The notes below the pieces were generated by a model. The model was not told where the DNA came from. It was given only the letters and a program-made list of their open reading frames with translations, and did no database searches. The position numbers were made by a program, and so were the translations under genes. From Nitrospirota bacterium (lineage in GTDB: Bacteria; Nitrospirota; UBA9217), in assembly GCA_963663225.1 (NCBI GenBank), contig OY760142.1:2976001-3040000 (forward strand): DNA of 64,000 nucleotides. Direction: 5' to 3'. How positions within the stretch are numbered: the stretch's first letter is position 1; the number at the start of each line of letters is the position of its first letter. This document shows positions 92 to 28,253 of this stretch, piece after piece.

Positions 92-1525
92 CTATTTTTT
101 CACATAAGGCTCATACTCCAGATAGAGTTTTCTCAGAGCAAATACGTATTTAAAACCCCTGCTGATAATGGTAAACATTTCCTTGAAGGGGTACCGTACC
201 CTCTTGAGCCGGAGAGGATTGGCCCGGAAGGCAATGCCGTACAGCTCTGAGAACCGCTGATAAAACTTCCGGATGGGAAGCCGTGTCGGAAGAATCGTGT
301 GCATGCAGTCGTAATAAACGTAGGGATCTTTGATGTAGTCATTTTTATGCTTTTCCCACAGTTCTGTGCCCGGTGACGGGGAAAACACGGTGAACGTCAC
401 TTCAGCGGGGCACACTTTTTTGACTTCTTCTTTCAGATTTGCAAATTCTTCCTCGCCGAAATCCGGATCGAGCATAAAGCTCGCGTGCAGCGTCAAATCC
501 AGCTCCCGGAGAATTTCGACCGCTCTCCTGTTTTTATCGACCGTCGTGCGTTTGTTCAACTTCTGCAATCGCTCTCCGGTCATGGCTTCAAGCCCGACAT
601 ACACCATGCTGAGGCCTGCCTGCTTCCAAATTTTGAAAACCTCCGGGTTCCGTACAATGCTGTCGCTTCGTGCCCAGCTGATGAATTTCTTTTTTATTCC
701 CCGGTCGATGAGCAGCTGGGCTATCTTGGTCATGCGGTCGGCGTTGATAAAGTTTTCGTCGTCCACAAAATAGATATGATCTTCCTGCAACCTTGCTATT
801 TCATCGACGACGTCTTCCGGGGTCCTTTGGAGATACTGGCCCCGCATGATGTGATGGACCACACAAAACGAACAGTTAAACGGGCAGCCGTTCGACGTGC
901 GGATCGTTGCCGTTCGGGGGAAAATAGTTTCCACCTTTTTTTCGTCGCTCGCCGTCCAGACGCAAAAATATTTGGACCGGTCGACAAGCTCCCGCCTCGG
1001 CAGTGGAATGTCCTCTATCTGAGGATATTTGGGCGGCAGTGCTTTCGCCTTTTCGGGGAAATCAGGGTCTTTGGGAGATAATATCGCATCCCCGGTGCTG
1101 AGAGGAAGCCCTTGTGTAAACCGATTTACAATCTCTTTGAAAGCGGTGCCGCCTTCTCCCCGCACAATGATATCGATGGCATCAATTCCGTAATCCCCCG
1201 GGAGGACGGTCGCGTGTATGCCGCCCACGACGTTGATGACGGCAGGTGCATGTTTCTTTGCAAATTCGGCAAGCTCCCGTACAAGCGCGGCCTGGCTGCT
1301 GAACCCGGTATATCCCACAATATCGGGTTTCATGGCCAGCAGTCTTTTTTTGAATGCATCGAAAGGGTCCTGCTCAAAGCTCAGGTCCATGATGACAACT
1401 TCATGCTCGCGGGGAATGCCGCCAGCCACAATTTCCAGCTCAAGGGGTTCCAGGTGCATGAAATAGTCCATCAAAAATTTGGACAAGGCCAGGGGCGGAT
1501 ACGGTTTAATCAGTAGAATACGCAT
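92..1525 (-). CDS. Cobalamin-binding radical SAM protein (class B / BchE-like), last visible gene of the lipid cluster
   Basis: N-terminal B12-binding Rossmann segment (EPLELEIVAG...PDIVG...VVGGIHAT...RGEG), CX3CX2C motif SNGCPFNCSFC, FVDDENF and VGLEA. Start moved to ATG 1525 (MRILLIKP), which has GGAGGT 5 nt upstream. Confidence 0.88.
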   Translation of the reverse strand: MRILLIKPYPPLALSKFLMDYFMHLEPLELEIVAGGIPREHEVVIMDLSFEQDPFDAFKKRLLAMKPDIVGYTGFSSQAALVRELAEFAKKHAPAVINVVGGIHATVLPGDYGIDAIDIIVRGEGGTAFKEIVNRFTQGLPLSTGDAILSPKDPDFPEKAKALPPKYPQIEDIPLPRRELVDRSKYFCVWTASDEKKVETIFPRTATIRTSNGCPFNCSFCVVHHIMRGQYLQRTPEDVVDEIARLQEDHIYFVDDENFINADRMTKIAQLLIDRGIKKKFISWARSDSIVRNPEVFKIWKQAGLSMVYVGLEAMTGERLQKLNKRTTVDKNRRAVEILRELDLTLHASFMLDPDFGEEEFANLKEEVKKVCPAEVTFTVFSPSPGTELWEKHKNDYIKDPYVYYDCMHTILPTRLPIRKFYQRFSELYGIAFRANPLRLKRVRYPFKEMFTIISRGFKYVFALRKLYLEYEPYVKK

Positions 1526-1616
1526 TGAATACCTCCAAAATTCTCTTTCATTCATTATTCTAAGGCGGCCGATGCCTGTCAAGCCGCCTGGTGTTCAGCC
1601 GGTTGGCCCACCGTTA

Positions 1617-3053
1617 TCAGCGGGAGCGTTTTATTTTTCCGCTCGGTGTTTTTTCCAGACAGTCTACGAAAGAAAAATCTTTCGGCACCTTATACGGTGC
1701 CAGGTGATGGTAACAGAAACGCTTCAGATCGTCAACTAAAGCATCAGAACGGACCATATCTTTTGCAACAACATCAGCAGCCGGAAGTTGCCCATAATGG
1801 GGATGTGGCACGCCATAGACAAAAGACTCCTTTACCTGCGGATGTTGATTGATGACCGCTTCCACTTCCTGTGCAAAAATTTTCATCCCGGCAAAATTAA
1901 TTATATCTTTCTGTCTCCCGACAATGAAGAGAAAACCGTCCGGATCCATTCGGCCGAGATCTCCTGTTTTAAACCAGCCGTCGGCAAGAATGTCTTCTCT
2001 GGGCTGCCAGGGAGAATAGTAGGCGTCAAGCATCCCCTTGCCTTTGATGCGAATTTCGCCGATACCGTTTGCATCTTTGTTATCAAGGGCGATCTGGTAA
2101 TCCGGCAATGGTTTGCCCACTGAACCGCGTTTGTTTTTTCCGCCGCCCAGGCGAATAAACGGCAAACCGACTTCTATGATGCCGTAGGCTTCGGACAACT
2201 CCAGGCCGAATTTCGCCGTAAAGTCCTCGGCAACCGCGTCGGGCAGCTTCATGGTCGTGGATATTGCCAGGCGGATACGGCTCAGGGTTTCCGGTGCAAG
2301 CTGGTCTGTTTTTGACAAGAGGCTGTAGTGAACAGGCGATGCATAGATCAGGGTGCCCTGGTGACTGGTTATCCCTTCGATAAATGGTTCCGGGAAAAGA
2401 TGGCCGCAGAGCACCAGCGTTGCACCGCGCCGCAGGAACAAAAGGATCGTAACGACAAAATGATAACTCATGGAAAGGACCCAGAGAATGACGTCCGCTG
2501 AAGATATGCACAATCCCTTGTCTGCGGCATCGGTCCTCTCGATGATCGCCTCATGTGACAGCACGACACCCTTGCTTATTCCCGTGGTACCGGAGGTAAA
2601 GCGGATGAACGCGGGATTGAGCCTGAAATATTCCGGCTTCGGGCGTTCTCGTATGGACCTTTTTACAATAATAAGCTGTTTTTTTCTAAGGCCGGGTGAG
2701 GCAAGGACATCGCGATATCCCCCGGTCCGCAATTTCGGCTCCGCGATAAGAAAATCCACGTCGATTCTGTCGACGACCGTTTCAATCTCTTCCGGAGTTT
2801 GCTCCGGAGAAACGGGTACCAGGACAGCTGAGAGCGACAAAACAGCAAGACTGGTGATGATATAATCAATGCTGTCTTCACACAGAAAACCGACTCGGTG
2901 AAGACGGGCAATTCCTTTTCGCCGCATGGCTTCCGCAGTCTGCTCCACGGCAGTGATAAGTTGCCCGTAGGTTACCCGGTCCTCACCCTCGATGACCGCG
3001 GTCTTGTCAAGCTGTGATTCCGCTTCTGTTTTTATGCTCTCGAAAATATTCAT
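1617..3053 (-). CDS. AMP-binding acyl-CoA/acyl-ACP ligase (ANL superfamily)
   Basis: Adenylation motifs FTSGTTGISKG, YGIIE, WFKTGDLG, GRQKD and the C-terminal TPSGKI. Confidence 0.9.
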   Translation of the reverse strand: MNIFESIKTEAESQLDKTAVIEGEDRVTYGQLITAVEQTAEAMRRKGIARLHRVGFLCEDSIDYIITSLAVLSLSAVLVPVSPEQTPEEIETVVDRIDVDFLIAEPKLRTGGYRDVLASPGLRKKQLIIVKRSIRERPKPEYFRLNPAFIRFTSGTTGISKGVVLSHEAIIERTDAADKGLCISSADVILWVLSMSYHFVVTILLFLRRGATLVLCGHLFPEPFIEGITSHQGTLIYASPVHYSLLSKTDQLAPETLSRIRLAISTTMKLPDAVAEDFTAKFGLELSEAYGIIEVGLPFIRLGGGKNKRGSVGKPLPDYQIALDNKDANGIGEIRIKGKGMLDAYYSPWQPREDILADGWFKTGDLGRMDPDGFLFIVGRQKDIINFAGMKIFAQEVEAVINQHPQVKESFVYGVPHPHYGQLPAADVVAKDMVRSDALVDDLKRFCYHHLAPYKVPKDFSFVDCLEKTPSGKIKRSR

Positions 3054-3092
3054 AAACGTTTTCTGTATTGCCGAAGCAACGATGTCAATGGT

Positions 3093-4298
3093 TCAGCGTG
3101 TAGACATCGGATACCTGCCGTTTTTGCTGAAATACGCCGCCGCCGTTCCAGCCTGTTCACCGAGCGCAATACAGGTGCCCATGACCCGGGTGGAGCCGAG
3201 CGCTGCATGCGAAACGGATATACAGCGTCCGGCGCACAGCAGATTTTTGAACCCTTTGACCGTCATGCAGCGAAATGGAATCTCATAATAATCGCCCTGC
3301 GGCACATACCGGTATGTTGTGCCGTGCTCGCTGGTCCATTCTTCGATGGGCCAGGAATTCTTGACGACGCCGTCAGTAAATTTTTTTGCCGTCAGCACGT
3401 CCTCTTCGGTAAGGATATAGTCTCCCTGAACCCGCCTTCCTTCCCGTTCTAAAATTTTGGGCGCTGTTTCAGCAATGCCGGCATTTTTGAATGGCGGAAG
3501 GACGCCCGCCAGATAAGCAATCATTGCGGACGCTTCTTTTTTCGCCCATTCGGTCCGATCCGAGTCTCCTCCGCTCTCCAGGCTCAGTTTGCAATAGCCT
3601 TCCTCGGGAGTCATTCCAAGGGTAAAGGTCGTGAACCGTGACAATGGCGACAGTTCTTTTTGCTGAACGGCTCGTGCAAGATAGTACGGCACTTTTACCG
3701 ACAGTGCTTCGTCCGCGTTTTTCAGCCCTTTAATATGGATCGTAAAACCGGCCAGCTGCCGCTCGTGAGGAGGAGCCAGTTCAAAATCCGCGCCGGCGGC
3801 GGCAGCAATGGTTCCGTCGCCGGTACAATCAATAACGGCCTGCGCGCTCACAACCATCGTCCGGTCAATGCCGCGCACGGTCACTGCCTTGACTCTTTGA
3901 TCGTCGGCATTCACCCCGACAGCGGCATGCTGCAACAAGAGAATGATTTTTTTCTCCGCCGCGCAAAGCCATGCAAGAGTGTTTGAAAGTGTTTTTCTCG
4001 AATACGGCAGAACAAACACCTGGCCGATTTTCCGCACGGAAGATCCCGGCGCGTTTTTTTTTAAAAGCATTTCCAGTTCACGAACGAACCCTGCGTTTAA
4101 CGTTTCCAGCGGGAAATCTTTTCCATTCAAATACAGCCCGCAGATATATTGAAACATGCCTGCGCACCCGATGCCGCCAAGATATGATTCAGACTCGACA
4201 AGCATCGTATCCGCACCTGACCGGGCTGCGGCTATTGCAGCGGCGGTTCCCGCGACGCCACCGCCGACCACCAGCACGTCACAGGACAGGTCGTTCAT
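3093..4298 (-). CDS. FAD-dependent oxidoreductase
   Basis: DVLVVGGGVAGTAAAIAAAR FAD motif, IDCTGDG, and C-terminal YEIPFRCM...NLLCAGRCIS...RVMGTC...GEQAG typical of this family. Confidence 0.85.
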   Translation of the reverse strand: MNDLSCDVLVVGGGVAGTAAAIAAARSGADTMLVESESYLGGIGCAGMFQYICGLYLNGKDFPLETLNAGFVRELEMLLKKNAPGSSVRKIGQVFVLPYSRKTLSNTLAWLCAAEKKIILLLQHAAVGVNADDQRVKAVTVRGIDRTMVVSAQAVIDCTGDGTIAAAAGADFELAPPHERQLAGFTIHIKGLKNADEALSVKVPYYLARAVQQKELSPLSRFTTFTLGMTPEEGYCKLSLESGGDSDRTEWAKKEASAMIAYLAGVLPPFKNAGIAETAPKILEREGRRVQGDYILTEEDVLTAKKFTDGVVKNSWPIEEWTSEHGTTYRYVPQGDYYEIPFRCMTVKGFKNLLCAGRCISVSHAALGSTRVMGTCIALGEQAGTAAAYFSKNGRYPMSTR

Positions 4299-5614
4299 GA
4301 CGGGGACGCTCCAAGTTCCAATCGTATGCCTGTTTCCAGCGCAGAAATTTCCTCGTCGGTCAGCAGACCATCGAGATACGAAATCGTCAGATTCAGCCGG
4401 CCATTGTAGTAATTACTGAAAAACCCGATGCCGGGGGGTACCGGAACACGCGGCATGTGAAAAAAATTACTGATGTGTCTGCCCATAAATTCATCCGACA
4501 GATAAGCGCTTTTTCCCAGATGCGAGAAGGCAAACGTTGCCATTCTGCCTTTCATCGGAAGATACAGCAGTTTCGCGAGCACCGGCAGCGGTGCTATGCG
4601 GGTCAGCAAACTGGCTTCGGATAAATCTTTCGGAAAACCGGATTTCACCTGATCGTACATTTGCCGTTTGAATGCCGTCAGAAGGACATTTCTGTCTGCG
4701 GCATCCGCAAGCGAAATCTGAAAAAACAGAAAGGAAATATGGTTGAAAAAGATTTCCTGCAACGGTTCTTTGCCCGGCCTCAAGTCCGTCGACACCGGGA
4801 TCACATAACTGGTTCCATCATTGGACGTCGCCGAGAAAAGCCCATGGATGGTGCGGGTTATGGCCGCCAGAAAAAACGGGGATTCCATGAGGTATCCGGC
4901 CTCATGGTACGCCCTGGCATATATTTCCGACGTTTCCTGTTCGGTGAACGCGAGCAGACGGTATGTAAAACCGCGTCCTCGCCCTTCTGGAAACGGAAAA
5001 GCCTTCGGAGTGGATTCCGACAACGCAATAATCCTGCGGTTCACGCTTCTGCCGGCCAGAAACTTATTCTTCCATTGTGTCAATGCCATTGAAGAAGTAA
5101 AGCGTATATCACCGGACAGATCGTGATTGTCCCTGTTTTGCTGAAGCAGATTAAGGAATGCTTCGGCGCCACGGGCGTCAAACAGCCGATGATCGAAAGT
5201 CATAGCAAGGGCGCTTTGTGTGGTCCCATTAGTAAACAGGTGGAACGCGATATGCTCCTTGTCGTCCCTGAATTTGCTGTTGGCGTTTTCCTGCAGACGG
5301 GAGAATACGGCATCCAGAGAAAAACCGCCATCGATCCGGGTCACTTTTAACGTTACATCACGATTTGCCGAAGAGGGTATTTTCCAGTAAGGGGTAAGTT
5401 TGAAGTCCCGGGCAACAGTCCCCTCCAGCACGGGGAACCGTTTTAAAAAACGGTTCACACGGCCGTGCAGGTCGGCTTCGTCGAGATGTCCGTCTAGGAC
5501 AAGAACGATCTGGGACATGTTCCCCGAACTGGTCAGGGACTTCATCATATAGTCGAGCGTGTTGATTGCCCAGTCATGACCGGATAAATAGCGCTTGCGA
5601 TTAGATACCAGCAT
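4295..5614 (-). CDS. Condensation-domain-like / CoA-dependent acyltransferase
   Basis: HxxxD(x)G-type motif FDHRLFDARG, N-terminal LVLDGHLD...RFPVL and C-terminal GRLNLTISY segments typical of the CAT-like two-lobe acyltransferase fold; 439 aa. Confidence 0.65.
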   Translation of the reverse strand: MLVSNRKRYLSGHDWAINTLDYMMKSLTSSGNMSQIVLVLDGHLDEADLHGRVNRFLKRFPVLEGTVARDFKLTPYWKIPSSANRDVTLKVTRIDGGFSLDAVFSRLQENANSKFRDDKEHIAFHLFTNGTTQSALAMTFDHRLFDARGAEAFLNLLQQNRDNHDLSGDIRFTSSMALTQWKNKFLAGRSVNRRIIALSESTPKAFPFPEGRGRGFTYRLLAFTEQETSEIYARAYHEAGYLMESPFFLAAITRTIHGLFSATSNDGTSYVIPVSTDLRPGKEPLQEIFFNHISFLFFQISLADAADRNVLLTAFKRQMYDQVKSGFPKDLSEASLLTRIAPLPVLAKLLYLPMKGRMATFAFSHLGKSAYLSDEFMGRHISNFFHMPRVPVPPGIGFFSNYYNGRLNLTISYLDGLLTDEEISALETGIRLELGASPS

Positions 5615-5626
5615 AATAAACCAGCG

Positions 5627-5869
5627 TTACAGCATTCTCTTGATGAAGGATGCCAGGCTGTGAATGGTTTCGAAGTCCTTTTTTGTCAGATCGGAAGTGA
5701 TTAATTGAAGTTTGAATGTTTTTTCCACAAGCACAAGAATCTCGACAAACCCCAAAGAATCAATTCCCAATTCATGAAACGGCTTGTCCGGCCTGATCGC
5801 AGACTCTTCCCTGCCGGTAATCAGCGAAATGCCTTTGATTAATTTGTCTTCAATTTCCTGTATTGTCAT
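5627..5869 (-). CDS. Acyl/peptidyl carrier protein
   Basis: 80 aa; phosphopantetheine site LGIDSLG; C-terminal DFETIHSLASFI. Confidence 0.88.
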   Translation of the reverse strand: MTIQEIEDKLIKGISLITGREESAIRPDKPFHELGIDSLGFVEILVLVEKTFKLQLITSDLTKKDFETIHSLASFIKRML

Positions 5870-5935: not shown

Positions 5936-7003
5936 TCATAGTTTTTTCAAGTACACTGTTGCTTTATCACCCGAGCAGTTGCATCCTATGCACCGGATCG
6001 ATTCAATCAGGGCGGTGCCGGATTCGGTCAAAAGATTGAGCTCTAAAGGGTTATCCAGAACCGGTGCCGGATAATAAACTTGTTTTTTTAGCATCAGAGC
6101 GCCGGCCGCAATATTGAAGGCGCTGCCAGTCATGACGCTGCCGAAAAGCGGAGCGTATGCCGCAGCCGGAGTGTCTGGTGACAGTAAGGGACGATACGCC
6201 GATTCATCCTGCATCATGCCGTCGGCATCTATGATAATAAGGTCATCAGGGTCCTGCCGTCCGTAGTCGTCGTGAAGCCGCAGTGCATCGACAGAACAAT
6301 ACCTGTTCTGCGTTTGTAGTTCGCTTGCCAGCAGAAAAACAGCCCCTTCCCCCGGGACCTGGCAGGTCGGATTGAAAACAAATGGTTTTATTTTGCCGTC
6401 CGGCGCATTATGCAGTTTTTGTTCTGACACATATCCCAGAACATCTCCGTACTGGTCCACACCGCCCACAAGGACGTAATCGCAACGTTTTTGAAGAAGC
6501 CACGTCTGGGCAAGCTGAAGGGCCGACTGAAATGAAAAGCGGAATTGCGTTACGGTCAGGGTCGGCCCCTGAATGTCCAGGGATGATGCTATATAGGAAG
6601 CTGCGGCATTATGCACGGAGTTTGAAAACGTGGTCGGCGACACCGCTGCATCGCCGAAGTCCAGGATGCCGTCAAGAAAATCGAACGTCGTTACATGAGC
6701 GCCAAAAGCCGTCGCCAGGATAATGCCCAGTTTTTTTCCGGTACAGTCAATTCCGCTGTCGGATATCGCGTCTGCCGCTGCAAGGACAGCCATCTTGCTC
6801 AGCTTGTCGGCCCGCCTGATTTTCTTCAACAGGGTCTTGTCCGGGACATCATCGAAGCTGACCAGATAGGCAAATCGTTTCCGGTCGGCATGTGAAGGCA
6901 CGGGTATTTCAAGAGGAGGCAGCCAGCCTGTTTGCAGGGCATTATCAAACCGGGCAATACCCAAACCCCGGGAAAAAATCATGCCTATTCCCGCTATGTT
7001 CAT
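5936..7003 (-). CDS. Ketosynthase-like chain-length factor (no catalytic Cys)
   Basis: KS N-terminal motifs IRRADKLSKMA and SPTTFSNSVHNAAA...GPTLTV, but TQFRFS replaces the ACSS active site; 4-nt overlap with the adjacent KS. Confidence 0.8.
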   Translation of the reverse strand: MNIAGIGMIFSRGLGIARFDNALQTGWLPPLEIPVPSHADRKRFAYLVSFDDVPDKTLLKKIRRADKLSKMAVLAAADAISDSGIDCTGKKLGIILATAFGAHVTTFDFLDGILDFGDAAVSPTTFSNSVHNAAASYIASSLDIQGPTLTVTQFRFSFQSALQLAQTWLLQKRCDYVLVGGVDQYGDVLGYVSEQKLHNAPDGKIKPFVFNPTCQVPGEGAVFLLASELQTQNRYCSVDALRLHDDYGRQDPDDLIIIDADGMMQDESAYRPLLSPDTPAAAYAPLFGSVMTGSAFNIAAGALMLKKQVYYPAPVLDNPLELNLLTESGTALIESIRCIGCNCSGDKATVYLKKL

Positions 7004-8178
7004 GCGCCCCCCTTTCTGCCGATTACAATGGCTGCATTGTTGCCGCCGAACGCAAGAGAGGTCGATACAGCATAGGTCCCGCTGATTTGTGTTTTTTCTT
7101 TGATGGGAGCGATCGGAATTGCCTCGTCACGGTTCTGGAAACCCACGCTGGCAGGCAACCATCCATCCCTGAGGCCGGCAGCAGTAAACACCGCTTCTAC
7201 TCCCCCTGCCGCACCGAGGGTGTGTCCGGTGAACCCTTTTGTTGAAAGCATTGCGAGGTCCGCACCGAAAATGTTTGCGAGGACTTTTCCTTCAACAAGG
7301 TCATTGTCCTGCGTCCCGGTGCCGTGCGCATTTACAAAAGCAACTTCAGCCGGTGTTATGCCGGCCTCCTCCAATGCCATGCGGATTGATGCTCTCAGAC
7401 CTGTCCCTTCAGGACTCGGCGCCGTAAGATGATATGCGTCTCCAAAAGATCCATATCCCGCAAGAAAAAGTTCTGATGTGTTCCTTCTTTTTTCCCTTAT
7501 GGATTTTTTTTCGAGGACCATGACTCCCGCGCCTTCGCCCAGATTAAGCCCTTTTCGATCTCGGTCAAAAGGGGCGCATAAATTCATATTGAGAATCCCG
7601 AGAGAGCCGAAGCCGCAGTATGGAATGTGGCTCAACTCGTCCGCTCCTCCGGCAATGGCAATGTCACACAGATCGTTTTTGATCCACGACAATGCCACGC
7701 CGATGGCATCCGTTCCTGATGAACACGCATTTACAACCGTAAGGTTCGGGCCTTTTGCCCCTAATTTTCTTGCAATGGAATCCGACAGGTTTCCTTTCAG
7801 GAAGCGGTCCACTGCCATGAGAGGCGCAGTGCCTTTCGAGCGGTATGTGGTATAGAACCGCAGATCGTTTAGCTGACTTGCAACGGTCGTGCCCATGCAG
7901 ACCCCGACCCGATACGGTGTAAGATCGGCCAAATTTGCTTCACGAAGCGCCTGATCCACGGCAATCAACGCCAAGCTGAGGGTCCTTTGGCCTTCACGAG
8001 AATACGCTTGCGGAATGTCCGGAACTTCAAACACAGGATATTGTAGTACGGACGGAAAAAGAGTTACCGGTCCTGCGTTTCTTCGTCCTGACTCAAAAGA
8101 ATCAAGCGTATCGCGGATATCCTTCCCTGCTGCCGATATCACTCCGAGTCCGGTTATGCGTATGTCAGACTTGGTCAT
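7000..8178 (-). CDS. Beta-ketoacyl-ACP synthase (type II KS)
   Basis: Cys-His-His triad NACSSG, NAHGTGT, GHTLGAAG; C-terminal SLAFGGNN. Confidence 0.92.
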   Translation of the reverse strand: MTKSDIRITGLGVISAAGKDIRDTLDSFESGRRNAGPVTLFPSVLQYPVFEVPDIPQAYSREGQRTLSLALIAVDQALREANLADLTPYRVGVCMGTTVASQLNDLRFYTTYRSKGTAPLMAVDRFLKGNLSDSIARKLGAKGPNLTVVNACSSGTDAIGVALSWIKNDLCDIAIAGGADELSHIPYCGFGSLGILNMNLCAPFDRDRKGLNLGEGAGVMVLEKKSIREKRRNTSELFLAGYGSFGDAYHLTAPSPEGTGLRASIRMALEEAGITPAEVAFVNAHGTGTQDNDLVEGKVLANIFGADLAMLSTKGFTGHTLGAAGGVEAVFTAAGLRDGWLPASVGFQNRDEAIPIAPIKEKTQISGTYAVSTSLAFGGNNAAIVIGRKGGA

Positions 8179-8215: not shown

Positions 8216-9235
8216 CTAATTACCCACAGACGCCTTTTTCATATAGGACGCTTGATCAGGAACACCTAATAAATCCAGTCCCTGATCGATGGTCACGATT
8301 CGCATCGATGGATAGTTCATGTGTATATACCGTATCATTTCGGCAAGCTGGGTCAATTCATTGTACATCACATAATCGACCCGGGCAGTGGCCCCGCTCA
8401 CCTCGCCGCGGATCAGGTCACCCGGCTGCGGCGTTCCTGAAAAGGGAACAAGATACAGTGAGAAACCGTACACGGGAAACCAGTGCACGGTCACATATCG
8501 GGCGACGGTGCCGGAAGGACTAAGCCTGAGCGTCTCTCCTTTGATAAAGCTGCCCTGTTTGTCCTCCAGTTTTACCTGCGCGTCTATTTCATGCTGATAG
8601 AAAATAAGCCAGTTCTTGTTTGTAAATGCGGCGTCGATGTGTTCTTTCATGCGGGCGACATCATGTTTCATGGAAAACGACTTCAGAAAATATGGATCTG
8701 ACACGTCCGCATTCAGTGAATTCGCGCCTCCCCGTGCCGACCGGTAATACTTTCTTGCGATTGATCTGACCATCTCATTGTTTTTGTTGAATGGATAAAC
8801 AAGGTTCTTCACCGGCAATCCCAGACGATCCAGTTCCGCTTTGGATGCCGACAACTCGGCTTCAATTTCTTCCGGAGACAGAGAATTTAAGTTCGGATGG
8901 GAAACCGTATGGCTCAGAATTTCCCAGCCCGCATCACGAAGGTCGCGAATTTGTGCCGGAGTCATATGGTCCTGCGTATTGACCCATCCGGTAGTAATCG
9001 CCGAGCACGCAACGGCACCGTGGTCGGAAAAAATTTTTTTCCCTACAAGATGGTCGGTGTCGTCTCCGTCGTCGAAAACAAATGTCACCAAAGGGAGCCC
9101 ATTTCCGGCAAAAGACTTCACGCCGGAAGAAACGGTTTTCCCGCACGAGCACAACAGGAAAAAGACCGACGCAAGCAAAAAAAACCGTTTTATGACCGTG
9201 GCGTTGCGATCAGGATGTCTTTTTCCTGTTTTCAT
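8216..9235 (-). CDS. Polysaccharide deacetylase (NodB/CE4)-like lipoprotein
   Basis: Lipobox-like LLCSC after a hydrophobic stretch; CE4 motifs FVFDDG, EILSHTVSHP, YPFN and FYQH. Start uncertain (9235 or 9250). Confidence 0.75.
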   Translation of the reverse strand: MKTGKRHPDRNATVIKRFFLLASVFFLLCSCGKTVSSGVKSFAGNGLPLVTFVFDDGDDTDHLVGKKIFSDHGAVACSAITTGWVNTQDHMTPAQIRDLRDAGWEILSHTVSHPNLNSLSPEEIEAELSASKAELDRLGLPVKNLVYPFNKNNEMVRSIARKYYRSARGGANSLNADVSDPYFLKSFSMKHDVARMKEHIDAAFTNKNWLIFYQHEIDAQVKLEDKQGSFIKGETLRLSPSGTVARYVTVHWFPVYGFSLYLVPFSGTPQPGDLIRGEVSGATARVDYVMYNELTQLAEMIRYIHMNYPSMRIVTIDQGLDLLGVPDQASYMKKASVGN

Positions 9236-9494
9236 AAACGTAATTTGCAATGGTATTGATGGAATAAAAAATCTCTTTGCCCTGGTCCATATTTTTTACT
9301 TCCAGACCGAAATTGCGCTGCAGCAAAACGACGATTTCCACGGCATCGAGCGAGTCCAGGCCGAGTCCTTCTCCAAAAAGCACCTCATCATCCTTAATGT
9401 CTTCAGGCTTGACGTCCTCGAGAGACAGATCCTTCACGATCATCTCCTTCAGATTTTTTCGGATTGCTGCAAGCTCTTGTTCTTTATTTTCCAT
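9210..9494 (-). CDS. Acyl carrier protein (aryl-polyene/ladderane type)
   Basis: 94 aa, acidic; LFGEGLGLDSLDAVEI motif. Confidence 0.92.
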   Translation of the reverse strand: MENKEQELAAIRKNLKEMIVKDLSLEDVKPEDIKDDEVLFGEGLGLDSLDAVEIVVLLQRNFGLEVKNMDQGKEIFYSINTIANYVYENRKKTS

Positions 9495-9524
9495 ACTATG
9501 CTCCTTTAGGATAGCAATGATATA

Positions 9525-10430
9525 TCAGGTATTGGATTTCCAGATGTCGCGAAAAACAAACCATTGAAACGGATATTGCCTTACATACTCCTCAAGAACT
9601 CGGCTGTATTCACGGACTGCCGCTTGTATCGCATTTTTTTTTGCTTCGCCTCTGCCCGTGGGAGGCAAAATCACGTGAGAGACGTCGACGATATATTTTT
9701 TCGGTCCTGTTTTAGCAGACAACAGGACTACGACAGGGCATTCAGCTGCGGCGGCAATGCTGAATGCCCCATAGGGAAACTGCACGCTTTCACCCAGAAA
9801 TGACGCATCAACGGCACTGTATCCGTACGTCCTGTCTCCCATGATTGAAACCAGATTGCCCTGATGAATGGCCTGGATCGCTTCAACCACCCCACCGAGG
9901 GCAGTATCGGTAAAAATAATTTTAACAAGCTCTCGTTCGTTGTCGATATGAAGGGCATTCTTGACTGCGTCATTGTCCTCCGGCCTCATCATCAGATAGA
10001 CGGTTCGTTCGAACTTCTTCAGCGCCGTCATGGTGACCTGCCAGTTCCCGACATGCGCAGTCAGAACAATAAAACCTTTGTTCTGCCTGGCCAATAGGTC
10101 GCGAATTTTGTCATGTCCCAGCAGCTCCATTTCGATATCGCCGCATCCCAGCGACAAGGCATATCGGTCAATCAGATTTTTTCCCTGACTGACAAACAAC
10201 CGGTACACCGAAAGCAGCTGCCTCCCTGCCCCATAATCCGGAAATCGCCTCTCAGCATACGCACGGGCGGCTAAAACCACAGGACGATCTACAATAAGAT
10301 AATACAGGGCGACGAAGTAGAGGAAACCGTACGCCCCCCGCAGTCCGAATATTCTTACTGCCAGATGAAAAAACCAAAAACCCAGACGGTTGCCGCGCTT
10401 CCGCTCAACAGTGCTCTTTTGTAGAGACAT
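9525..10430 (-). CDS. Lipid A acyltransferase-like (LpxL/HtrB family) acyltransferase
   Basis: LTAHVGNW, MGDR, FLG...FPYGAF and YPFQWFVF motifs. Confidence 0.85.
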   Translation of the reverse strand: MSLQKSTVERKRGNRLGFWFFHLAVRIFGLRGAYGFLYFVALYYLIVDRPVVLAARAYAERRFPDYGAGRQLLSVYRLFVSQGKNLIDRYALSLGCGDIEMELLGHDKIRDLLARQNKGFIVLTAHVGNWQVTMTALKKFERTVYLMMRPEDNDAVKNALHIDNERELVKIIFTDTALGGVVEAIQAIHQGNLVSIMGDRTYGYSAVDASFLGESVQFPYGAFSIAAAAECPVVVLLSAKTGPKKYIVDVSHVILPPTGRGEAKKNAIQAAVREYSRVLEEYVRQYPFQWFVFRDIWKSNT

Positions 10431-11607
10431 GAGAATACCTTATTTTTTTGATCGCCGCGGCAGTCAGGTATACGATGGCGCCCATCAACACCGCGGCCAG
10501 CGGCGCAACAAACAGGGAACCGAGAAACCATTCAAAGATGCGGGACGAAAACTCCCTGAAGACCGTTTCGTATGACAAATCCGTCAGCCAGCTGCCATGC
10601 CGCAAATAATACCCCACTTCGATGCATAACGCCGGCATAAAGGGCGGTACGGCCAGATGCTGGACATTCAACGCCACGATTTTGTTCAGATTGAACCGCA
10701 GGGAGACGTAAAAAATGACGATCGAATGCATGAACAAAATCGGGAGCACCGCAATAAACAACCCCACCGCCGCGGACAGCGCCAGGCCTTCCGGGGTCGC
10801 GCTTTCCTGCAGGAGCATTTTCAACACTTTTGCAGGATGTCGCAGGAGCGAAACATCAAAAGCCGACGTATTCTGAACGAGCTTTTTGTGCCTAACCGGC
10901 AGAAGACGCCTTCCGACAAGCATCGTATGAATACGAGCAAGGCGCAAATTATCCAGAATCGGTTTGAAGCTTGAAACCCGTTCTTCCGGCTTCGGGTACA
11001 CAACGTCGATGTCAACCGTTTTAATCGGTATTCCCGCCCATGCAGCCTTTGCCAGCACTTCTGCTTCAAAATCGTATCGAACCCCTTTGAACGGCAACTG
11101 ATTGAGATAGGGAAGCGGATATGCCCGGAAACCGCTCTGACAATCCGGGACAACCTGTCCGGTCTCAACCAGAAGCCAGAAGTTCGCAAACGATCTTCCG
11201 AACCGGCTTGAAAAAGGGACATTTTCCGCAGCAAAATTTCTGTTTCCAACAAGAAGACACGGGTCATCCGTGCGTAAATACGGAAAAAACTTCTTCATGT
11301 CCTGGGGGCAGTGCTGTCCGTCGGCATCGATGGTAATCATAGAGAGAGCGCCTTGTTTCTCGCAGTAATGAGATGCCGTCAATATGGCCTGACCTTTGCC
11401 CAGGTTTTTTTCATGCTTCAGCACAACCACATCAAGATCCGATACCAGCGCTGCGACATCCGCGTCAGTGCTGCCGTCATCCACTACGACCACATGGGGA
11501 AGAACAGCGCGGCATTCCTGCACGATCCGTCGGAGGGTGCTCCCATTATTAAAAACCGGAACGGCACACCAGATGACGTCCAAAGTGAGCGGCTCATGCT
11601 GCTCCAT
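10405..11607 (-). CDS. Glycosyltransferase family 2 fused to a DUF2062-like membrane domain
   Basis: VPVFNN, VVDDGSTD, NLGKG, DADGQH and DCQSGFRAY GT2 motifs, then ATPEGLALSAAVGLFIAVLP...LN membrane domain. Start moved to ATG 11607 (MEQHEPL). Confidence 0.85.
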   Translation of the reverse strand: MEQHEPLTLDVIWCAVPVFNNGSTLRRIVQECRAVLPHVVVVDDGSTDADVAALVSDLDVVVLKHEKNLGKGQAILTASHYCEKQGALSMITIDADGQHCPQDMKKFFPYLRTDDPCLLVGNRNFAAENVPFSSRFGRSFANFWLLVETGQVVPDCQSGFRAYPLPYLNQLPFKGVRYDFEAEVLAKAAWAGIPIKTVDIDVVYPKPEERVSSFKPILDNLRLARIHTMLVGRRLLPVRHKKLVQNTSAFDVSLLRHPAKVLKMLLQESATPEGLALSAAVGLFIAVLPILFMHSIVIFYVSLRFNLNKIVALNVQHLAVPPFMPALCIEVGYYLRHGSWLTDLSYETVFREFSSRIFEWFLGSLFVAPLAAVLMGAIVYLTAAAIKKIRYSHVSTKEHC

Positions 11608-12964
11608 GCGTCTTTCTCTCCCTCTTTTTTTTACCGGGAAGCAGCAGGTCCCACATGGGCCCCGTATATCCAAGCTTATGCAGCACCTGAAGGCTGCTGT
11701 CATAGCTGTCAGGAGGAAACACACAGTGACGTACGCCTTCAAAAGCCTTTGTCAATGTTTCCTCAAGCCACGTTCTGTCTACAGCCGGAGAAAGATAATA
11801 CACGGGATGCAGCATTCCCGTCTCCGGTGAAATCACCTTTTCCTTGAGGGCTATGCGTTCCAGCGGAGTATTCGGCAAAATACGGATGCCCATGAAAATG
11901 AAAATCACGCTTTTTTTGAGGCCGAGAATATTCCGGATGCCTTCGCGCACCGTGTCTTGTGTTTCTCCCGGGCCTCCGAACATGACGAAATGCGATATTG
12001 CGATATCATGCCGCGCAAACATATCACTGGTCTCTGCGACATCAGCAAACGTAAAACTTTTGCCCATCGCTTTGAGCGTGGCATCGGAAGTTGCATCGGC
12101 CCCGATTTCGGCGGCAACGAACCCCGTTTTTTTCATCCGTTCCACAATCTCGTCGGTCATGCCTTTCGGCTTGAAATATCCGGTCCACGGAAGAACAACA
12201 TTGCGCCGCAGCATTTCGTCAACTATTTCGAGATAAGCGCCTTCGTCGTCATTAAACACCGAATCGACGAAAAAAATATACTTCGCCTTGAATTTGTCCC
12301 GGAGAAGTTCGATATCGTCAACTACCGCGCCGGGCTCCCGCCTGCGAATCTGCGAGCCCTCGAGCAGGGGATAGGTACAGTACACGCATTTATAGGCGCA
12401 CCCGCGCTTCGTCTGGACGGAAGCAATATTGCCGTTATGCAGATAAAACTCGATCAGTTTCTCATCATACCGTGCGGAACAAATCTGATTGCCGGAAAGT
12501 TTCGGCGCGGACGTCAGGATGGATTCCGGAGGATACACTCCGCGCGCGGCATTATTTGCGAATTCAACGATCAGCTCTTCCCCTTCCCCGACGATGCCGT
12601 AATCAGCACCGGTTTTCTGTAAAATCCCTTCGGGAATGAGTGAAAAACCGGCCCCCCCGAGCAGTATTCTGGCATCCGTTGCCGTTCTGACGCTGTCTAC
12701 AATGTCTTTGACATTTTGGATGTAATATCGCTCATTCATGAAGTTCACATTGTCGATATTTCGCACGGATATCCCGACAAGATCAGGTTGTAACCGGAGC
12801 ACTTCATTGCGGACGGCATCAAGCGAATTGCCCTGGTGAAGAAAATCGACCTGGTGGACCTCATGACCGGCTTTGGCAAGAGCAGCGGCAATCATGCTCA
12901 AACCGAGCGGATACACGGGATACGGAGAAATGGTCGTATTTGCGGAAATAAGCATGATTTTCAT
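11594..12964 (-). CDS. Lipid-biosynthesis B12-binding radical SAM protein (ladderane-island type)
   Basis: N-terminus MKIMLISANTTISPYPVYPLGL and GISVRNIDN, characteristic of the lipid-cluster B12/rSAM family; KRGCAYKCVYC. Confidence 0.88.
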   Translation of the reverse strand: MKIMLISANTTISPYPVYPLGLSMIAAALAKAGHEVHQVDFLHQGNSLDAVRNEVLRLQPDLVGISVRNIDNVNFMNERYYIQNVKDIVDSVRTATDARILLGGAGFSLIPEGILQKTGADYGIVGEGEELIVEFANNAARGVYPPESILTSAPKLSGNQICSARYDEKLIEFYLHNGNIASVQTKRGCAYKCVYCTYPLLEGSQIRRREPGAVVDDIELLRDKFKAKYIFFVDSVFNDDEGAYLEIVDEMLRRNVVLPWTGYFKPKGMTDEIVERMKKTGFVAAEIGADATSDATLKAMGKSFTFADVAETSDMFARHDIAISHFVMFGGPGETQDTVREGIRNILGLKKSVIFIFMGIRILPNTPLERIALKEKVISPETGMLHPVYYLSPAVDRTWLEETLTKAFEGVRHCVFPPDSYDSSLQVLHKLGYTGPMWDLLLPGKKKRERKTHGAA

Positions 12965-16645: not shown

Positions 16646-17040
16646 GGGAGTCGTTGTTTTTTCTTTCCGCTTTTGAAAACAACCCGCAGCTTCAGTTCGG
16701 CAACTTTTGCATCGGCTTTCGTAATAGCCGCTTTGAAAGTGGACTCACCGCCGTCCTCACCGATACTGATGAGCTGGCAGGTTATTTCCTCCTCGGGAAA
16801 CACGGGGGTCAGGTATTTTGCAAGAATAATCTCTTTGAGGCCGACTGTTTTCCCGAATGCTTTTTCGAGCGTTGTGACGGCACATTGAATCTGGCAGGCG
16901 CCCGGCAAAACTTTTTTTGCAGGGAAATGACCCTGGAAGCCTATGAACTCCTGCGGGAAAATAAACCGTGAAGCAACCGACCGGTCGTCTTTTGTCAAAC
17001 CGATCATATGCCGCTCGACCTCGGCTTTGATCTTACTCAC
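16642..17040 (-). CDS. 3-hydroxyacyl-ACP dehydratase subunit (FabA/FabZ, ApeI-like)
   Basis: FQGHFP...LPGACQIQ motif; 132 aa hot-dog size. Confidence 0.82.
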   Translation of the reverse strand: MSKIKAEVERHMIGLTKDDRSVASRFIFPQEFIGFQGHFPAKKVLPGACQIQCAVTTLEKAFGKTVGLKEIILAKYLTPVFPEEEITCQLISIGEDGGESTFKAAITKADAKVAELKLRVVFKSGKKKQRLP

Positions 17041-17705
17041 TAATTGAGCTCCTTATGATGTACGGTCAACGTATAGCCGTGTTGGTAGTTGACCAGAATG
17101 ATGTCCTGCGGAAAACGCTTTCCCTTAAAATCCCGATACCCGTTGTAAGAGATTTGCCAGGCAATTATATGGTTTTCATCGTAGTAGCGTTTTTCAACAA
17201 GATCACCCTGCTGTCTTGAAAAAATATATTCTATGAATCCGGCGTCCCAAACCTGTCTGTAGTGAAACCGATATTTTCTTTTCCATACCGATGCTTCGGA
17301 AGAGGGAAGAAGATTAAAATAGATGCGCCTGATATCAGTGCTTACAGCTGCAGCAATGTCTCCGTATTGGAGAAGAACCCCTATGGCGTACTGGGTTGTT
17401 ACCATGCGTTCATCCCCGGACAGTTCGAACAGCTTCACGCCCATTGGATTCAGGCACGCAACCCTAAAAAGATGCTTGTTTGTATCGATTTCCAGGGTGC
17501 CGAGACCGAGAAATTTTTGACCATTATACTCAAAAACAACTGTGTTAAGCAATTGAAAAATTTCCGGAATTGATAAACGGAACCTTTCCACAACGGCTTG
17601 CGGATCAGCAGATTCCGCAGAACTGGAGGTTGTCCCTTGGATCGGAGCATGAGTACACCCGTAAAAAAAAGCTAACAGTATGAATAGTAAATGAAATCGC
17701 TTCAT
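17040..17705 (-). CDS. Lipoprotein, DUF3261/ApeN-like
   Basis: Signal peptide with FYGC lipobox; NPMGVKLFEL...DIRRIYF; position directly after the MMPL gene as in aryl-polyene clusters. Start ATG 17705 overlaps the MMPL stop. Confidence 0.6.
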   Translation of the reverse strand: MKRFHLLFILLAFFYGCTHAPIQGTTSSSAESADPQAVVERFRLSIPEIFQLLNTVVFEYNGQKFLGLGTLEIDTNKHLFRVACLNPMGVKLFELSGDERMVTTQYAIGVLLQYGDIAAAVSTDIRRIYFNLLPSSEASVWKRKYRFHYRQVWDAGFIEYIFSRQQGDLVEKRYYDENHIIAWQISYNGYRDFKGKRFPQDIILVNYQHGYTLTVHHKELN

Positions 17706-27319: not shown

Positions 27320-27376
27320 TATCACCAGTTGATGACGGCAGCAACAATCATCCGAAAACGAAAAAAAACAGTCGTA

Positions 27377-28111
27377 CTACATCGCCAGTCCGCCATTGAC
27401 GCCGATAACCTGACCATGGATATACATATTCTCCTCGGTACAGAGAAAATGAACAACAGATGCGATATCGTCGACCTTGCCAACGCGGTTAAGGGGAATC
27501 AACGGGAGGACCTGCTCTTTCGGAATGTCTTTAGTCATTTCCGTTTCGATAAAACCGGGAGCAACTACGTTTACAAAGATGTTTTTCCTGCCGACTTCGC
27601 GGGCCAGCGCTTTTGCCGCCCCGATTAACCCGGCCTTAGAAGCGGAATAGTTTACCTGTCCTGCCTGGCCGACCTGGCCTGATACGGAAGAAATCACTAC
27701 GATTCTTCCTCGTTTTGCCTTGAGCATGGAAAACACCACGGCACGGGTGGTGTTAAAAAAACCGTTGAGGTTAGTTGTGACCACTGAATCCCATTCTTCT
27801 TTTGACATCCACATCAGGAGATTGTCACGGGAAATGCCCGAATTGTAGACAAAAACATCAGGTGACGTGGTTTCCAACCGGGCGCCTAACGCAGCCTCAG
27901 TTTCTTCAAAACTGGACACATCAAAAGAAAAAAGCTCACAGGCGGCACCTGTCGATTCTATCTCCGCTTTAACAGAACGGGCCGCTTCATGATTGCTTTT
28001 ATACGTAAGCCAAATGGAAAAACCGGCTTTAGCCAGCTTCACCGCAATGGCCCGCCCTATCCCGCGGCTGCCGCCTATTATCAATGCAATTTTCTTTGAC
28101 TGGGTTTTCAT
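27377..28111 (-). CDS. fabG: 3-oxoacyl-ACP reductase
   Basis: GGSRGIG, NSGISRD, NYSASKAG, VAPGFIET, GQVIGVNGG. Start set at ATG 28111. Confidence 0.93.
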   Translation of the reverse strand: MKTQSKKIALIIGGSRGIGRAIAVKLAKAGFSIWLTYKSNHEAARSVKAEIESTGAACELFSFDVSSFEETEAALGARLETTSPDVFVYNSGISRDNLLMWMSKEEWDSVVTTNLNGFFNTTRAVVFSMLKAKRGRIVVISSVSGQVGQAGQVNYSASKAGLIGAAKALAREVGRKNIFVNVVAPGFIETEMTKDIPKEQVLPLIPLNRVGKVDDIASVVHFLCTEENMYIHGQVIGVNGGLAM

Positions 28112-28224
28112 ATCGAAAGAAGAAAAGCCGCCTTTCTGCGCAGGTGTTGCAAAATGCTGCAAAATACTCGTGCATTTAACCTTTTAATTTTTCAAGGTAT
28201 TTTTGCTAATCCTGTAAATTTTGC

Positions 28225-28253
28225 ATACTACACTAACATTTTTTGGCTGTCAA
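28225..28253 (-). promoter_or_regulatory. Putative sigma70 promoter of the lipid cluster
   Basis: Minus strand TTGACA-17 nt-TAGTAT, about 110 nt upstream of fabG. Confidence 0.65.

Follow-up and report, generated by a model that had tools for sequence, protein, structure and literature searches.

What does a strict anaerobe build with a long operon that carries the core genes of an aryl-polyene system beside four radical S-adenosylmethionine (SAM) enzymes? The question is raised by a locus of an anaerobic Nitrospirota bacterium (GTDB lineage UBA9217; assembly GCA_963663225.1), contained in a stretch of 64,000 nucleotides, hereafter the window, that represents bases 2,976,001-3,040,000 of a single contig of 3,255,001 bp (OY760142.1). 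Twenty-seven co-oriented open reading frames (ORFs), designated g1 to g27, occupy its minus strand from 28162 down to 92; as called, 17 of the 26 gene junctions overlap, by 1 to 148 nt, and the widest intergenic gap measures 153 nt (g13 to g14). An initial annotation, made from the letters of the sequence, had described 27 genes on one strand with many stop/start overlaps, and the ORF coordinates bear this out.

Clusters of this type, common in anaerobes, entered the literature in 2009 (Rattray et al., PMC2649909). No biosynthetic cluster family of Gram-negative bacteria is, according to published descriptions, more widespread than the aryl-polyene family, whose known products shield aerobes and pathogens from reactive oxygen. 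The window holds a complete anaerobe version, with four radical SAM enzymes, two flavoproteins and an additional chain-building module instead of the SAM methyltransferase, a tailoring enzyme of the oxygen era. These unusual enzymes are textbook suspects for the synthesis of ladderanes, a process in which no enzyme has been shown to act, and knowledge of the product would reveal both what strict anaerobes carry in their outer membranes and how B12-binding radical SAM enzymes act on a chain of fatty-acyl type.

Here we document that the cluster contains the full core of an aryl-polyene (APE) or aryl-polyene-lipid (APEL) system, and we reason that it probably encodes a pathway of that type to which radical SAM tailoring enzymes and a second module for chain building have been added, the 27 genes representing a single instance of an operon that is conserved in strict anaerobes and has spread laterally. 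The product is likely an exported, radical-tailored polyene glycolipid. The cluster is intact and well conserved and belongs to a known family whose chemistry is unsolved, and its value lies in that family rather than in this copy; the window provides a clean single-contig example and, from it, a sharper parts list comprising a fused dehydratase half, split His/Glu motifs and a condensation-fold transferase.

Results

A complete aryl-polyene core

Ties to characterized aryl-polyene enzymes come from searches of PDB sequences with two proteins at the head of the cluster. The ketosynthase (KS) g3 retrieved first the ApeR enzymes of A. baumannii (AbApeR, 7F27; 3.1e-98) and Paraburkholderia (PpApeR, 4EWG; 9.1e-95), both as identified in PMC8358021, with FabB/FabF entries following at ~1e-81 or weaker. 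The ketoreductase (KR) g1 best matched 6NRP and 7CAW (E ~1e-61), which are A. baumannii ApeQ, ahead of the FabG of the same organism (AbFabG, 7CAZ; 2e-47), the identities being those given in PMC8041823. Alignment of the catalytic residues located an intact Cys-His-His triad in g3, g13 and g21, none of the three residues in g22, and a truncated g14 without the Cys region. A full-triad ketosynthase (g13) followed by a short Cys-less partner (g14) is the architecture of ApeO and ApeC; in the PDB sequence search g14 gave weak, generic KS matches, and those of g22 were likewise generic. The DSL motif is present in all three acyl carrier proteins (ACPs; g4, g19 and g23), two of which also exceed the cut-offs of curated NCBIfam models: g4 that of PRK05350 (71.5 bits, cut-off 65) and g19 that of PRK09184 (76.8 bits, cut-off 70). 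The sequence of g19 is 66-90% identical in related loci.

The list of core genes by which the APEL preprint defines ape clusters consists of KS apeO/R, ACP apeE/F, the chain-length factor (CLF) apeC, dehydratase (DH) apeI/P, KR apeQ and transporter apeM, and each of these has a counterpart among the 27 genes, for apeO and apeC by architecture. An ApeR-type KS, an ApeQ-type KR, two carrier proteins and a predicted heteromeric dehydratase of the ApeI:ApeP type are accompanied by g9, g8 and g10, which lie adjacent and overlapping and correspond to the ApeM/ApeL/ApeN set. The head-group SAM methyltransferase ApeB of the family is missing, and the usual sources of its aromatic (4-hydroxyphenyl) starter were looked for in the genome and not found. 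Searches of the 27 proteins against Pfam and NCBIfam revealed no enoyl reductase domain, and no SAM methyltransferase or halogenase domain either, in agreement with the earlier remark that a classical SAM O-methyltransferase and a halogenase are absent.

A dehydratase half fused to a radical SAM enzyme

Both halves of the putative dehydratase are recognizable, one of them in an unusual setting. The small subunit g11 contains the sequence GFQGHFP, invariant in 31 of 31 aligned rows, and has a weak FabZ match in NCBIfam. The second half forms the C-terminus of g7, an ORF that opens as a radical SAM/SPASM enzyme (CNFRCIYC at residue 38) and ends in a weak ApeP-like family match. In an AlphaFold2 model of g7 built with 25 homologues (predicted local distance difference test, pLDDT, 70.3), the N-terminal part matched SkfB, MoaA and viperin in Foldseek, and the best match overall was 6qsr_B (E 3.9e-10; TM 0.78 on the target; 25% identity). 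Entry 6QSR is titled 'The Dehydratase Heterocomplex ApeI:P'; its chain B is ApeP and matches the C-terminal domain of g7. No variation was seen at H364, E408 or the SPASM cysteines of g7 in any of the 25 aligned rows.

FabZ draws its catalytic His from a GHFP motif of one subunit and its Glu from the central helix of the partner subunit. Given these motif positions and the complementary conserved residues of the two proteins, the His of a single shared active site would come from g11 and its Glu from g7.

The fusion itself extends well beyond the window. When the best 150 of 33,649 representatives (50% identity; E<=0.001) retrieved with g7 were inspected, 31 carried the radical SAM and hot-dog parts end to end, the alignments starting within the first 66 residues and reaching past residue 460, and many others were radical SAM/SPASM proteins of ~350 aa without the hot-dog end; the fusion is a family in its own right. 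A divergent variant of the cluster (G008:C5, loci L066/L067) bears a stand-alone ApeP-like hot-dog gene without a radical SAM/SPASM part, the match to g7 spanning the hot-dog part alone, so that the fusion is not universal in the family. This variant also lacks LolA, DUF3261 and the deacetylase.

Three B12-binding radical SAM enzymes and two flavoproteins

All four radical SAM proteins, one of SPASM type and three B12-binding, contain CxxxCxxC. Among the latter, g16 reaches 622.6 bits (cut-off 360) with NCBIfam TIGR04072 ('rSAM_ladder_B12'), the match spanning positions 1-442 of 443, its next-best NCBIfam families being BzaD and class B methyltransferases. Its neighbor g15 (CKFNCFPC at residue 173) has very weak Pfam matches and is nevertheless 66-86% identical in related loci across phyla, which places it among the most conserved genes of the cluster as judged by sequence; in a set of 5.8 billion proteins, 6358 of 8000 scored candidates matched it at E<=1e-20, and a protein bearing the NCBI name Pelobacter propionicus is 82% identical. 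The stop of g15 and the start of g16 overlap by 4 nt, an arrangement that most of the 30 listed related loci share; a predicted complex of the two proteins scored 0.01. The last gene, g27 (CPFNCSFC at residue 233), reaches 235 bits with HpnR, the hopanoid C-3 methylase, far under the cut-off of 650, and 153 bits with BchE, also far under its cut-off.

Of the two flavoproteins, g2 resembles CrtI and CrtD while scoring far under the cut-offs of the NCBIfam models CrtD and crtI_fam, and g25 (PF12831) has in addition a weak match to the geranylgeranyl-reductase family in NCBIfam.

Lipid assembly, export and a second chain-building module

The export set combines a LolA-like protein above its Pfam cut-off (g8) with a lipoprotein that carries the lipobox-like motif FYGC (g10) and a large membrane protein, g9, for which no Pfam match was found at E<=0.001 and whose NCBIfam matches are HpnN (73.5 bits) and HAE3 (57 bits). 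The glycosyltransferase g17 matches Pfam Glycos_transf_2 and DUF2062, and its best NCBIfam model, under cut-off, is PpgS, a polyprenyl-phospho-GalNAc synthase (81.6 bits). At the site of the LpxL-family motif, which we take to be H-x4-D/E, with an acidic residue after the His, the single g18 sequence reads HVGNWQ.

Genes g20 to g27 include a further set of chain-building parts. No family match for g24 was found in Pfam, NCBIfam or PDB sequences. The motif F-D-H-x3-D-x-R-G is invariant in 19 of 19 homologue rows, and homologues gave weak family matches to 2-oxoacid_dh (10/19), Condensation (5/19) and WS_DGAT_C (3/19). The AlphaFold2 model (pLDDT 74.8; pTM 0.81) matched AzeD (8s6l, E 7e-19), the condensation, cyclization and epimerization domains of nonribosomal peptide synthetases, and TRI3 in Foldseek. 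From these fold matches and the invariant motif, g24 is predicted to be a stand-alone condensation-fold acyltransferase. We considered that the polysaccharide deacetylase g20 might free an amine for cytoplasmic N-acylation by g24, and set this aside: g20 has an export-type N-terminus, so the two proteins probably act in different compartments.

Coordinates and assignments of all 27 genes are collected in Table 1. The functions tallied in the initial annotation were recovered throughout by Pfam, NCBIfam and motif alignments: three ketosynthases with intact triad and two Cys-less ones, three carrier proteins, a FabG-type reductase, two hot-dog dehydratase domains (g11, with a weak ApeI-like match, and the ApeP-fold C-terminus of g7), a thioesterase (g12), two adenylating ligases (g6 and g26), a GT2 glycosyltransferase, LolA, two flavoproteins, four radical SAM genes (g7, g15, g16 and g27), and three acyltransferases, namely g5 of PlsC type, g18 of LpxL type and, from its model, g24 as the third. 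The transporter it had called MMPL-type holds as RND/HpnN-like, with matches below cut-off. The tally had left g20, the CE4 deacetylase, unnamed.

Table 1. Genes of the cluster and associated promoter string, with positions in the window, and number of informative loci retaining each gene
Feature	Position	Strand	Assignment	Basis or remark	Loci with gene
Promoter string	28225..28253	-	Sigma-70-like string TTGACA-N17-TAGTAT, upstream of g1	Consensus match	
g1	27377..28162	-	3-Oxoacyl-ACP reductase, ApeQ type	Pfam adh_short 177 bits; likely start ATG at 28111	
g2	25829..27325	-	CrtI/CrtD-like FAD flavoprotein, phytoene-desaturase-like	Pfam Amino_oxidase, NAD_binding_8	
g3	24606..25832	-	Ketosynthase, ApeR type	Cys-His-His intact	
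g4	24311..24652	-	Acyl carrier protein	PP-binding; DSL at Ser65	
g5	23550..24314	-	PlsC-type (lysophospholipid) acyltransferase, ApeD-like	Pfam Acyltransferase 81 bits; HRSAVD motif	
g6	22249..23553	-	PaaK/FlxY-like adenylating ligase (starter activation)	Pfam AMP-binding, AMP-binding_C_2	
g7	20768..22252	-	Radical SAM/SPASM enzyme with ApeP-type hot-dog dehydratase half	Pfam Radical_SAM, SPASM	32/33
g8	20082..20768	-	LolA-like periplasmic carrier, ApeL-like	Pfam LolA 69.4 bits, above cut-off	32/33
g9	17702..20089	-	RND/HAE3-type membrane transporter, ApeM-like	795 aa	27/33
g10	17040..17747	-	DUF3261 lipoprotein, ApeN/LolB-like	Pfam 31.3 bits, cut-off 22.3	27/33
g11	16642..17040	-	Small hot-dog dehydratase subunit, ApeI-like	132 aa; GHFP His motif	31/33
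g12	16163..16645	-	4HBT/YbgC-type thioesterase, ApeK-like	Pfam 4HBT_2 69 bits	32/33
g13	15048..16208	-	Elongating ketosynthase	Cys-His-His intact	32/33
g14	14220..14894	-	KS N-terminal half, ApeC-like short chain-length-factor type	224 aa; no active Cys	32/33
g15	12961..14223	-	Divergent B12-binding radical SAM protein	Weak Pfam matches, 31 bits each	33/33
g16	11594..12964	-	B12-binding radical SAM protein	TIGR04072 ('lipid biosynthesis B12-binding/radical SAM protein')	
g17	10405..11742	-	GT2 glycosyltransferase with DUF2062 membrane domain, ApeJ-like	Likely start 11607	33/34
g18	9525..10430	-	LpxL-type lipid acyltransferase	Pfam Lip_A_acyltrans 53.5 bits	33/34
g19	9210..9494	-	Second carrier protein, ApeF-like	DSL	31/34
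g20	8216..9250	-	CE4 polysaccharide deacetylase	Pfam Polysacc_deac_1 59 bits; N-terminal signal/lipobox-like segment	23/34
g21	7000..8178	-	Ketosynthase of second module	Cys-His-His intact	28/34
g22	5936..7003	-	KS-like, chain-length-factor type	Without Cys, His, His	28/34
g23	5627..5869	-	Third carrier protein, extra to two APE/APEL carriers	DSL	26/34
g24	4295..5614	-	Predicted stand-alone condensation-fold acyltransferase	HxxxD	24/34
g25	3093..4298	-	FAD-dependent oxidoreductase	PF12831, 267 bits	
g26	1617..3053	-	FadD/MenE-like AMP-forming ligase	Pfam AMP-binding 183 bits	
g27	92..1582	-	B12-binding radical SAM protein, HpnR/BchE-like	Class B methylase type	

A conserved operon dispersed among anaerobes

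A scan of genome contigs with g16 located 54 loci, against which all 27 proteins were compared by tblastn. Most are metagenome-assembled genomes of Nitrospirota; about 12 belong to Geobacterales, Geobacteraceae, Pelobacter-type organisms or Desulfuromonadales, and Elusimicrobia, Deferribacteres, Nitrospinota and Pseudomonadota are represented by one record each. One locus is 97% identical, and near-complete copies of the cluster occur in Geobacterales and Pelobacteraceae. The frequencies in Table 1 are limited to 52 loci in which g16 is at least 55% identical and enough flanking sequence is available, 33 being informative upstream and 34 downstream; counts for g6 and for g25-g27, which lie near or beyond the 10-kb flank, are lower bounds.

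Six longer Nitrospirota regions allowed comparison of the whole arrangement. Three (G005, G151 and G265) contain 27 of 27 genes, with the order of g26 and g27 swapped, and a fourth (G220) contains 25, g6 and g26 being missing. The remaining two, G197 and G008, are divergent variants; G197 keeps g21 and g22 and is without g20 and g23-g26. The 27-gene arrangement thus recurs in other genomes, and the earlier suggestion of a hybrid special to this organism is not sustained.

Distribution is patchy even at close range. TIGR04072 scored above cut-off in 64 of 301 sampled Nitrospirota genomes, and within the genus of the window an orthologue-level match was present in 3 of 6 genomes, the other three being 94, 88 and 83% complete; we conclude that the cluster is accessory. 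In a tree of g16 restricted to 31 rows (the window and the first 30 loci with g15 and g16, the other 21 orthologue-level loci being excluded), a Geobacterales-type clade (8 rows, 98/96) fell within a Nitrospirota-dominated clade (22 rows, 100/97). Such nesting of Geobacterales-type g16 in Nitrospirota diversity suggests transfer between phyla; the tree is midpoint-rooted and gives no direction.

A biofilm metagenome (run X5) yielded a single 62-kb contig that covers window positions 8401-28400 with 498 differing letters (~97.5% identity), and hence represents a close relative with the same cluster in another sample. Two runs labelled RNA-Seq (X17, X18) that were compared with the window were judged to be probably DNA, one of them being identical in its data to a DNA run.

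Relationship to described clusters

Compared by published description, the window cluster corresponds to the type reported by Rattray et al. from Kuenenia, Desulfotalea, Geobacter and Pelobacter. That paper describes Kuenenia clusters for type II fatty acid synthesis with SAM radical enzymes, phytoene-dehydrogenase-like proteins and many FabF paralogues; 'striking' synteny in D. psychrophila that includes a phenylacetyl-CoA ligase, an oxidoreductase, a glycosyltransferase and a new membrane protein; and similar clusters in Geobacter and Pelobacter carbinolicus, as well as a deacetylase-like protein, Kuste3351 (PMC2649909). The features shared with the Kuenenia (Kuste3335-3352)/Desulfotalea island are therefore, by description, SAM radical, phenylacetyl-CoA-ligase-like and phytoene-dehydrogenase-like enzymes, an oxidoreductase, a glycosyltransferase, a deacetylase-like protein, FabF paralogues including triad-less ones, and a new membrane protein; their counterparts in the window include g16 (TIGR04072), g2, g6, g25, g17 and the triad-less g22 and g14. 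The initial annotation had combined ape parts with markers of the Kuenenia-type island (a PaaK-like ligase, a CrtI-like flavoprotein and B12-binding radical SAM proteins), a combination supported by the gene content and by TIGR04072. Two members of the Kuenenia island, a SAM methyltransferase (Kuste3347) and a VacJ-like protein, have no counterpart in the window. Rattray et al. made no link to aryl polyenes, the machinery of which was then not yet described.

The anammox literature has since centered on a different, six-gene 'Cluster I' (KustE3603-3608), said to be confined to ladderane producers (PMC10139942; bioRxiv 10.64898/2026.05.19.726425). As described there, it shares kinds of parts with the window (amxACP, amxFabZ, the KS amxFabF2 with an inactive amxFabFmut, a PDH-like flavoprotein and a B12-binding radical SAM protein) and, unlike the window, has no export, glycosyltransferase or acyltransferase genes. 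In a review of 2026 (PMC13459092), three radical SAM routes to ladderanes are still given as untested. Genome-mining tools file clusters of the window type under 'ladderane'; those assigned to the antiSMASH class of that name are expressed in many non-anammox phyla of the Cariaco Basin, with function unknown (PMC9902471), and the literature reports no ladderanes outside anammox bacteria (PMC2649909, PMC9902471, PMC10139942). The statement of the initial annotation that the product of this cluster type is unknown accords with these sources (PMC2649909, PMC13459092, PMC9902471, PMC10139942). In the literature searched we found no publication that assigns a product to the non-anammox clusters or points out the full ape machinery in them, none on the function of TIGR04072, and, among the papers listed, no study beyond Rattray 2009 of the function of ladderane-type clusters in Geobacter, Nitrospirota, Thermodesulfovibrio or Desulfotalea.

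The second point of reference is the ape system itself (apeA-R of E. coli CFT073, Xenorhabdus doucetiae and A. baumannii), with which the window shares the ApeR KS, the ApeQ KR, an ApeP-fold half with a small partner, a KS with a short CLF, two ACPs, a thioesterase, a PlsC acyltransferase, a GT2 enzyme, LolA-like/RND/DUF3261 export and the lack of an enoyl reductase. The ape product is APE-GalNAc-phosphate-glycerol with a second, conjugated C26:5 chain (APEL preprint), which fits the best match of g17, a GalNAc-phosphate-lipid synthase. By analogy, the shared parts suggest that the cluster probably follows the same logic, in which two unsaturated chains on a sugar-phosphate-glycerol anchor are sent to the outer membrane. 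Set against the apeA-R clusters, that of the window resides in an anaerobic Nitrospirota host, has its ApeP half fused to a radical SAM/SPASM enzyme, and adds three B12-binding radical SAM enzymes, the CrtI-like and PF12831 flavoproteins, the CE4 deacetylase, a second KS/CLF/ACP/ligase module and the condensation-fold transferase.

Flexirubin clusters of Bacteroidota supply the best-scoring named families for three genes: FlxB for g1 (295.2 bits, cut-off 340), FlxY for g6 (464.3 bits, cut-off 520; PaaK gave 170 bits) and LolA2_flexi for g8 (112 bits, cut-off 125). Membership in that group was rejected on these scores; neither dialkylresorcinol genes nor a tyrosine ammonia-lyase are present.

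Discussion

A proposed pathway

The components can be arranged into the following route. The PaaK/FlxY-like ligase g6 would load a starter acid onto the carrier g4, and the starter would be extended by g3 and by g13 with its short chain-length factor g14, the reductase g1 and a two-subunit dehydratase composed of g11 (His motif) and the hot-dog end of g7 (invariant Glu). Since no enoyl reductase is encoded, the chains would remain polyunsaturated or conjugated, with g4 and g19 each bearing one of them, as happens in APEL synthesis. While carrier-bound, they might be modified by the radical SAM/SPASM domain of g7, the coupled g15/g16 pair and the flavoprotein g2; C-methylation is the default class B chemistry, and desaturation or C-C bond formation is also conceivable. 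A further chain, primed by g26, could be built by g21/g22/g23, tailored by g25 and g27, and transferred to the lipid by g24. The acyltransferases g5 and g18 and the glycosyltransferase g17 would place the chains on a glycerophospho-(amino)sugar anchor, g9, g8 and g10 would take the lipid to the outer membrane, and the exported g20 may deacetylate the sugar there.

The steps differ in how firmly they can be drawn. Most secure are an ape-type type II system that, without enoyl reductase, leaves unsaturated chains on dedicated carriers, and the ape-type LolA/RND/DUF3261 export of a lipid built by PlsC-, LpxL- and GT2-type enzymes. Least secure are the roles of the four radical SAM enzymes and two flavoproteins, the identity of the starter, and the feeding of the second module into the same molecule. 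The initial annotation had proposed an exported, multi-chain, radical-tailored lipid or glycolipid; this stands as a reasonable reading, and the 'aryl' part of the name is what the genome calls into question. No chorismate lyase, Rv2949c-like lyase or aromatic ammonia-lyase was found in the 99% complete genome in a search that covered Chor_lyase, Rv2949c-like and Lyase_aromatic models, other routes to aromatic acids lying outside it; control genomes gave matches. The usual sources of a 4-hydroxyphenyl starter being missing, the head group may not be aromatic.

Several observations, including this one, weigh against the assignment to an extended APE/APEL pathway. The window is without the ApeB methyltransferase of apeA-R clusters. 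The g11 subunit scores 21.9 bits with the Pfam ApeI-like model, under the cut-off of 28.5, and no convincing solved relative appeared for it in the PDB sequence search (two matches, E ~0.002). By sequence, g13 appears nearer to FabF-type enzymes and to 9s5h_B than to any solved ApeO: 9s5h_B (1.6e-47) is followed by FabF entries (to ~1e-45), and then by 7f28_B (6.5e-36) and XdApeO 6qsp_A (1.3e-34). The transporter g9 is RND-like at scores below NCBIfam cut-offs, and all three flexirubin models score under their curated cut-offs as well. The second module is absent in 6 of the 34 informative loci and may have a function separable from the rest. Finally, D. psychrophila, in which a syntenic cluster was described, yielded no ladderanes, and polyunsaturated hydrocarbons are the only unusual lipids reported there (PMC2649909).

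Other readings of the cluster

The separable second module leads to the thought that the operon joins two neighboring pathways, an APE-type cluster for a polyene lipid (g1-g19) and an independent acyl-chain module (g20-g27) for another envelope molecule. The six loci concerned lack g22 and keep g15-g18, G197 retains g21 and g22 without g20 and g23-g26, and the order of g26 and g27 is swapped in relatives. We nonetheless regard two pathways as unlikely, since the parts are co-oriented in the window with gaps of 66 nt or less at the junction, occur together in 24-28 of 34 informative loci and in 4 of 6 long regions, and leave the second module without a KR, DH, thioesterase or exporter of its own.

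About as unlikely, in our estimate, is a bolder version of the tailoring proposal, according to which the radical SAM/SPASM part of g7 and the g15/g16 pair would act during elongation and form C-C bonds (rings or cross-links), as a non-anammox counterpart of ladderane-type chemistry. If true, the cultivable Pelobacter and Geobacter strains that carry the cluster would offer a genetically tractable way into a biosynthesis unsolved for twenty years.

Somewhat less probable again is the proposal of Rattray et al. that such clusters supply the cell's own membranes with polyunsaturated fatty acids or hydrocarbons by an oxygen-independent route, with the flavoproteins and radical SAM enzymes serving as anaerobic desaturases. 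It was advanced for D. psychrophila, where polyunsaturated hydrocarbons coincide with the syntenic cluster (PMC2649909); that link is a proposal of the paper, not an experimental result. A KS, KR and DH without enoyl reductase, together with two flavoproteins, would suit the window to this role. The LolA/RND/DUF3261 export set, GT2 enzyme, deacetylase and three acyltransferases point instead to a specialized envelope glycolipid, the ApeR, ApeQ and ApeP matches tie the core to pigment-lipid synthesis, and presence in half of the genomes of the genus is unlike a housekeeping lipid pathway.

Least probable is that the radical SAM enzymes cyclize or cross-link the polyene, through cyclobutane, cyclopropane or other rings, into a ladderane-related lipid outside anammox bacteria: g16 falls in a family named after ladderane-type clusters, the best solved relative of g13 (9s5h_B) comes from an entry with two different KS-type chains, and reviews to 2026 invoke a B12-binding radical SAM protein and a phytoene-dehydrogenase-like enzyme for ladderanes (PMC13459092, PMC10139942), yet none were found in D. 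psychrophila (PMC2649909), a different cluster, KustE3603-3608, is seen as the one confined to their producers (PMC10139942; bioRxiv 10.64898/2026.05.19.726425), and the families nearest in score to g16 and g27 are methylases or BzaD, HpnR and BchE.

Boundaries and neighboring genes

The initial annotation had placed the operon behind one promoter. The string is present upstream of g1, as one site in 600 bp; because shuffled sequence yields about the same number (mean 0.7), the string alone is no evidence of function. At the other end a GGAGA-N6-TTG at 15..2, likewise present as noted earlier, had been taken as a hint that the operon continues past the left edge. This extension was ruled out. 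The TTG at 4..2 opens a frame of 20 codons that ends in a stop, and the next gene after g27 encodes an unrelated rhomboid protease (start at window position -71). Neither the 6 long regions nor the 54 related loci have a rhomboid gene next to the cluster, and g27 is accordingly its last gene. Beyond the rhomboid gene lie genes for a response regulator, a sigma-70 factor, a lactonase-type propeller and a PilZ protein.

Upstream (5') of g1 are pheT, pheS, a gene for a SPOR protein and queA. The first two lie directly upstream (28379-31739, minus strand) and encode products of 565 aa (PheT, matching the B5 and CLM domain alone) and 521 aa (PheS), lengths unusual for bacterial phenylalanyl-tRNA synthetase subunits. 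On the other strand, some 20 kb away from the cluster, is a fifth gene for a B12-binding radical SAM protein (495 aa; 48746-50233, plus strand), flanked by genes for a XerC/D-type tyrosine recombinase (46863-47744, minus strand) and a PocR-PAS hybrid histidine kinase of 1065 aa (50736-53933, minus strand). A gene at 44193-46817 (minus strand) encodes a protein of 874 aa that combines DHH/DHHA1 phosphoesterase and CBS domains with a poly(A)-polymerase/CCA-adding head domain.

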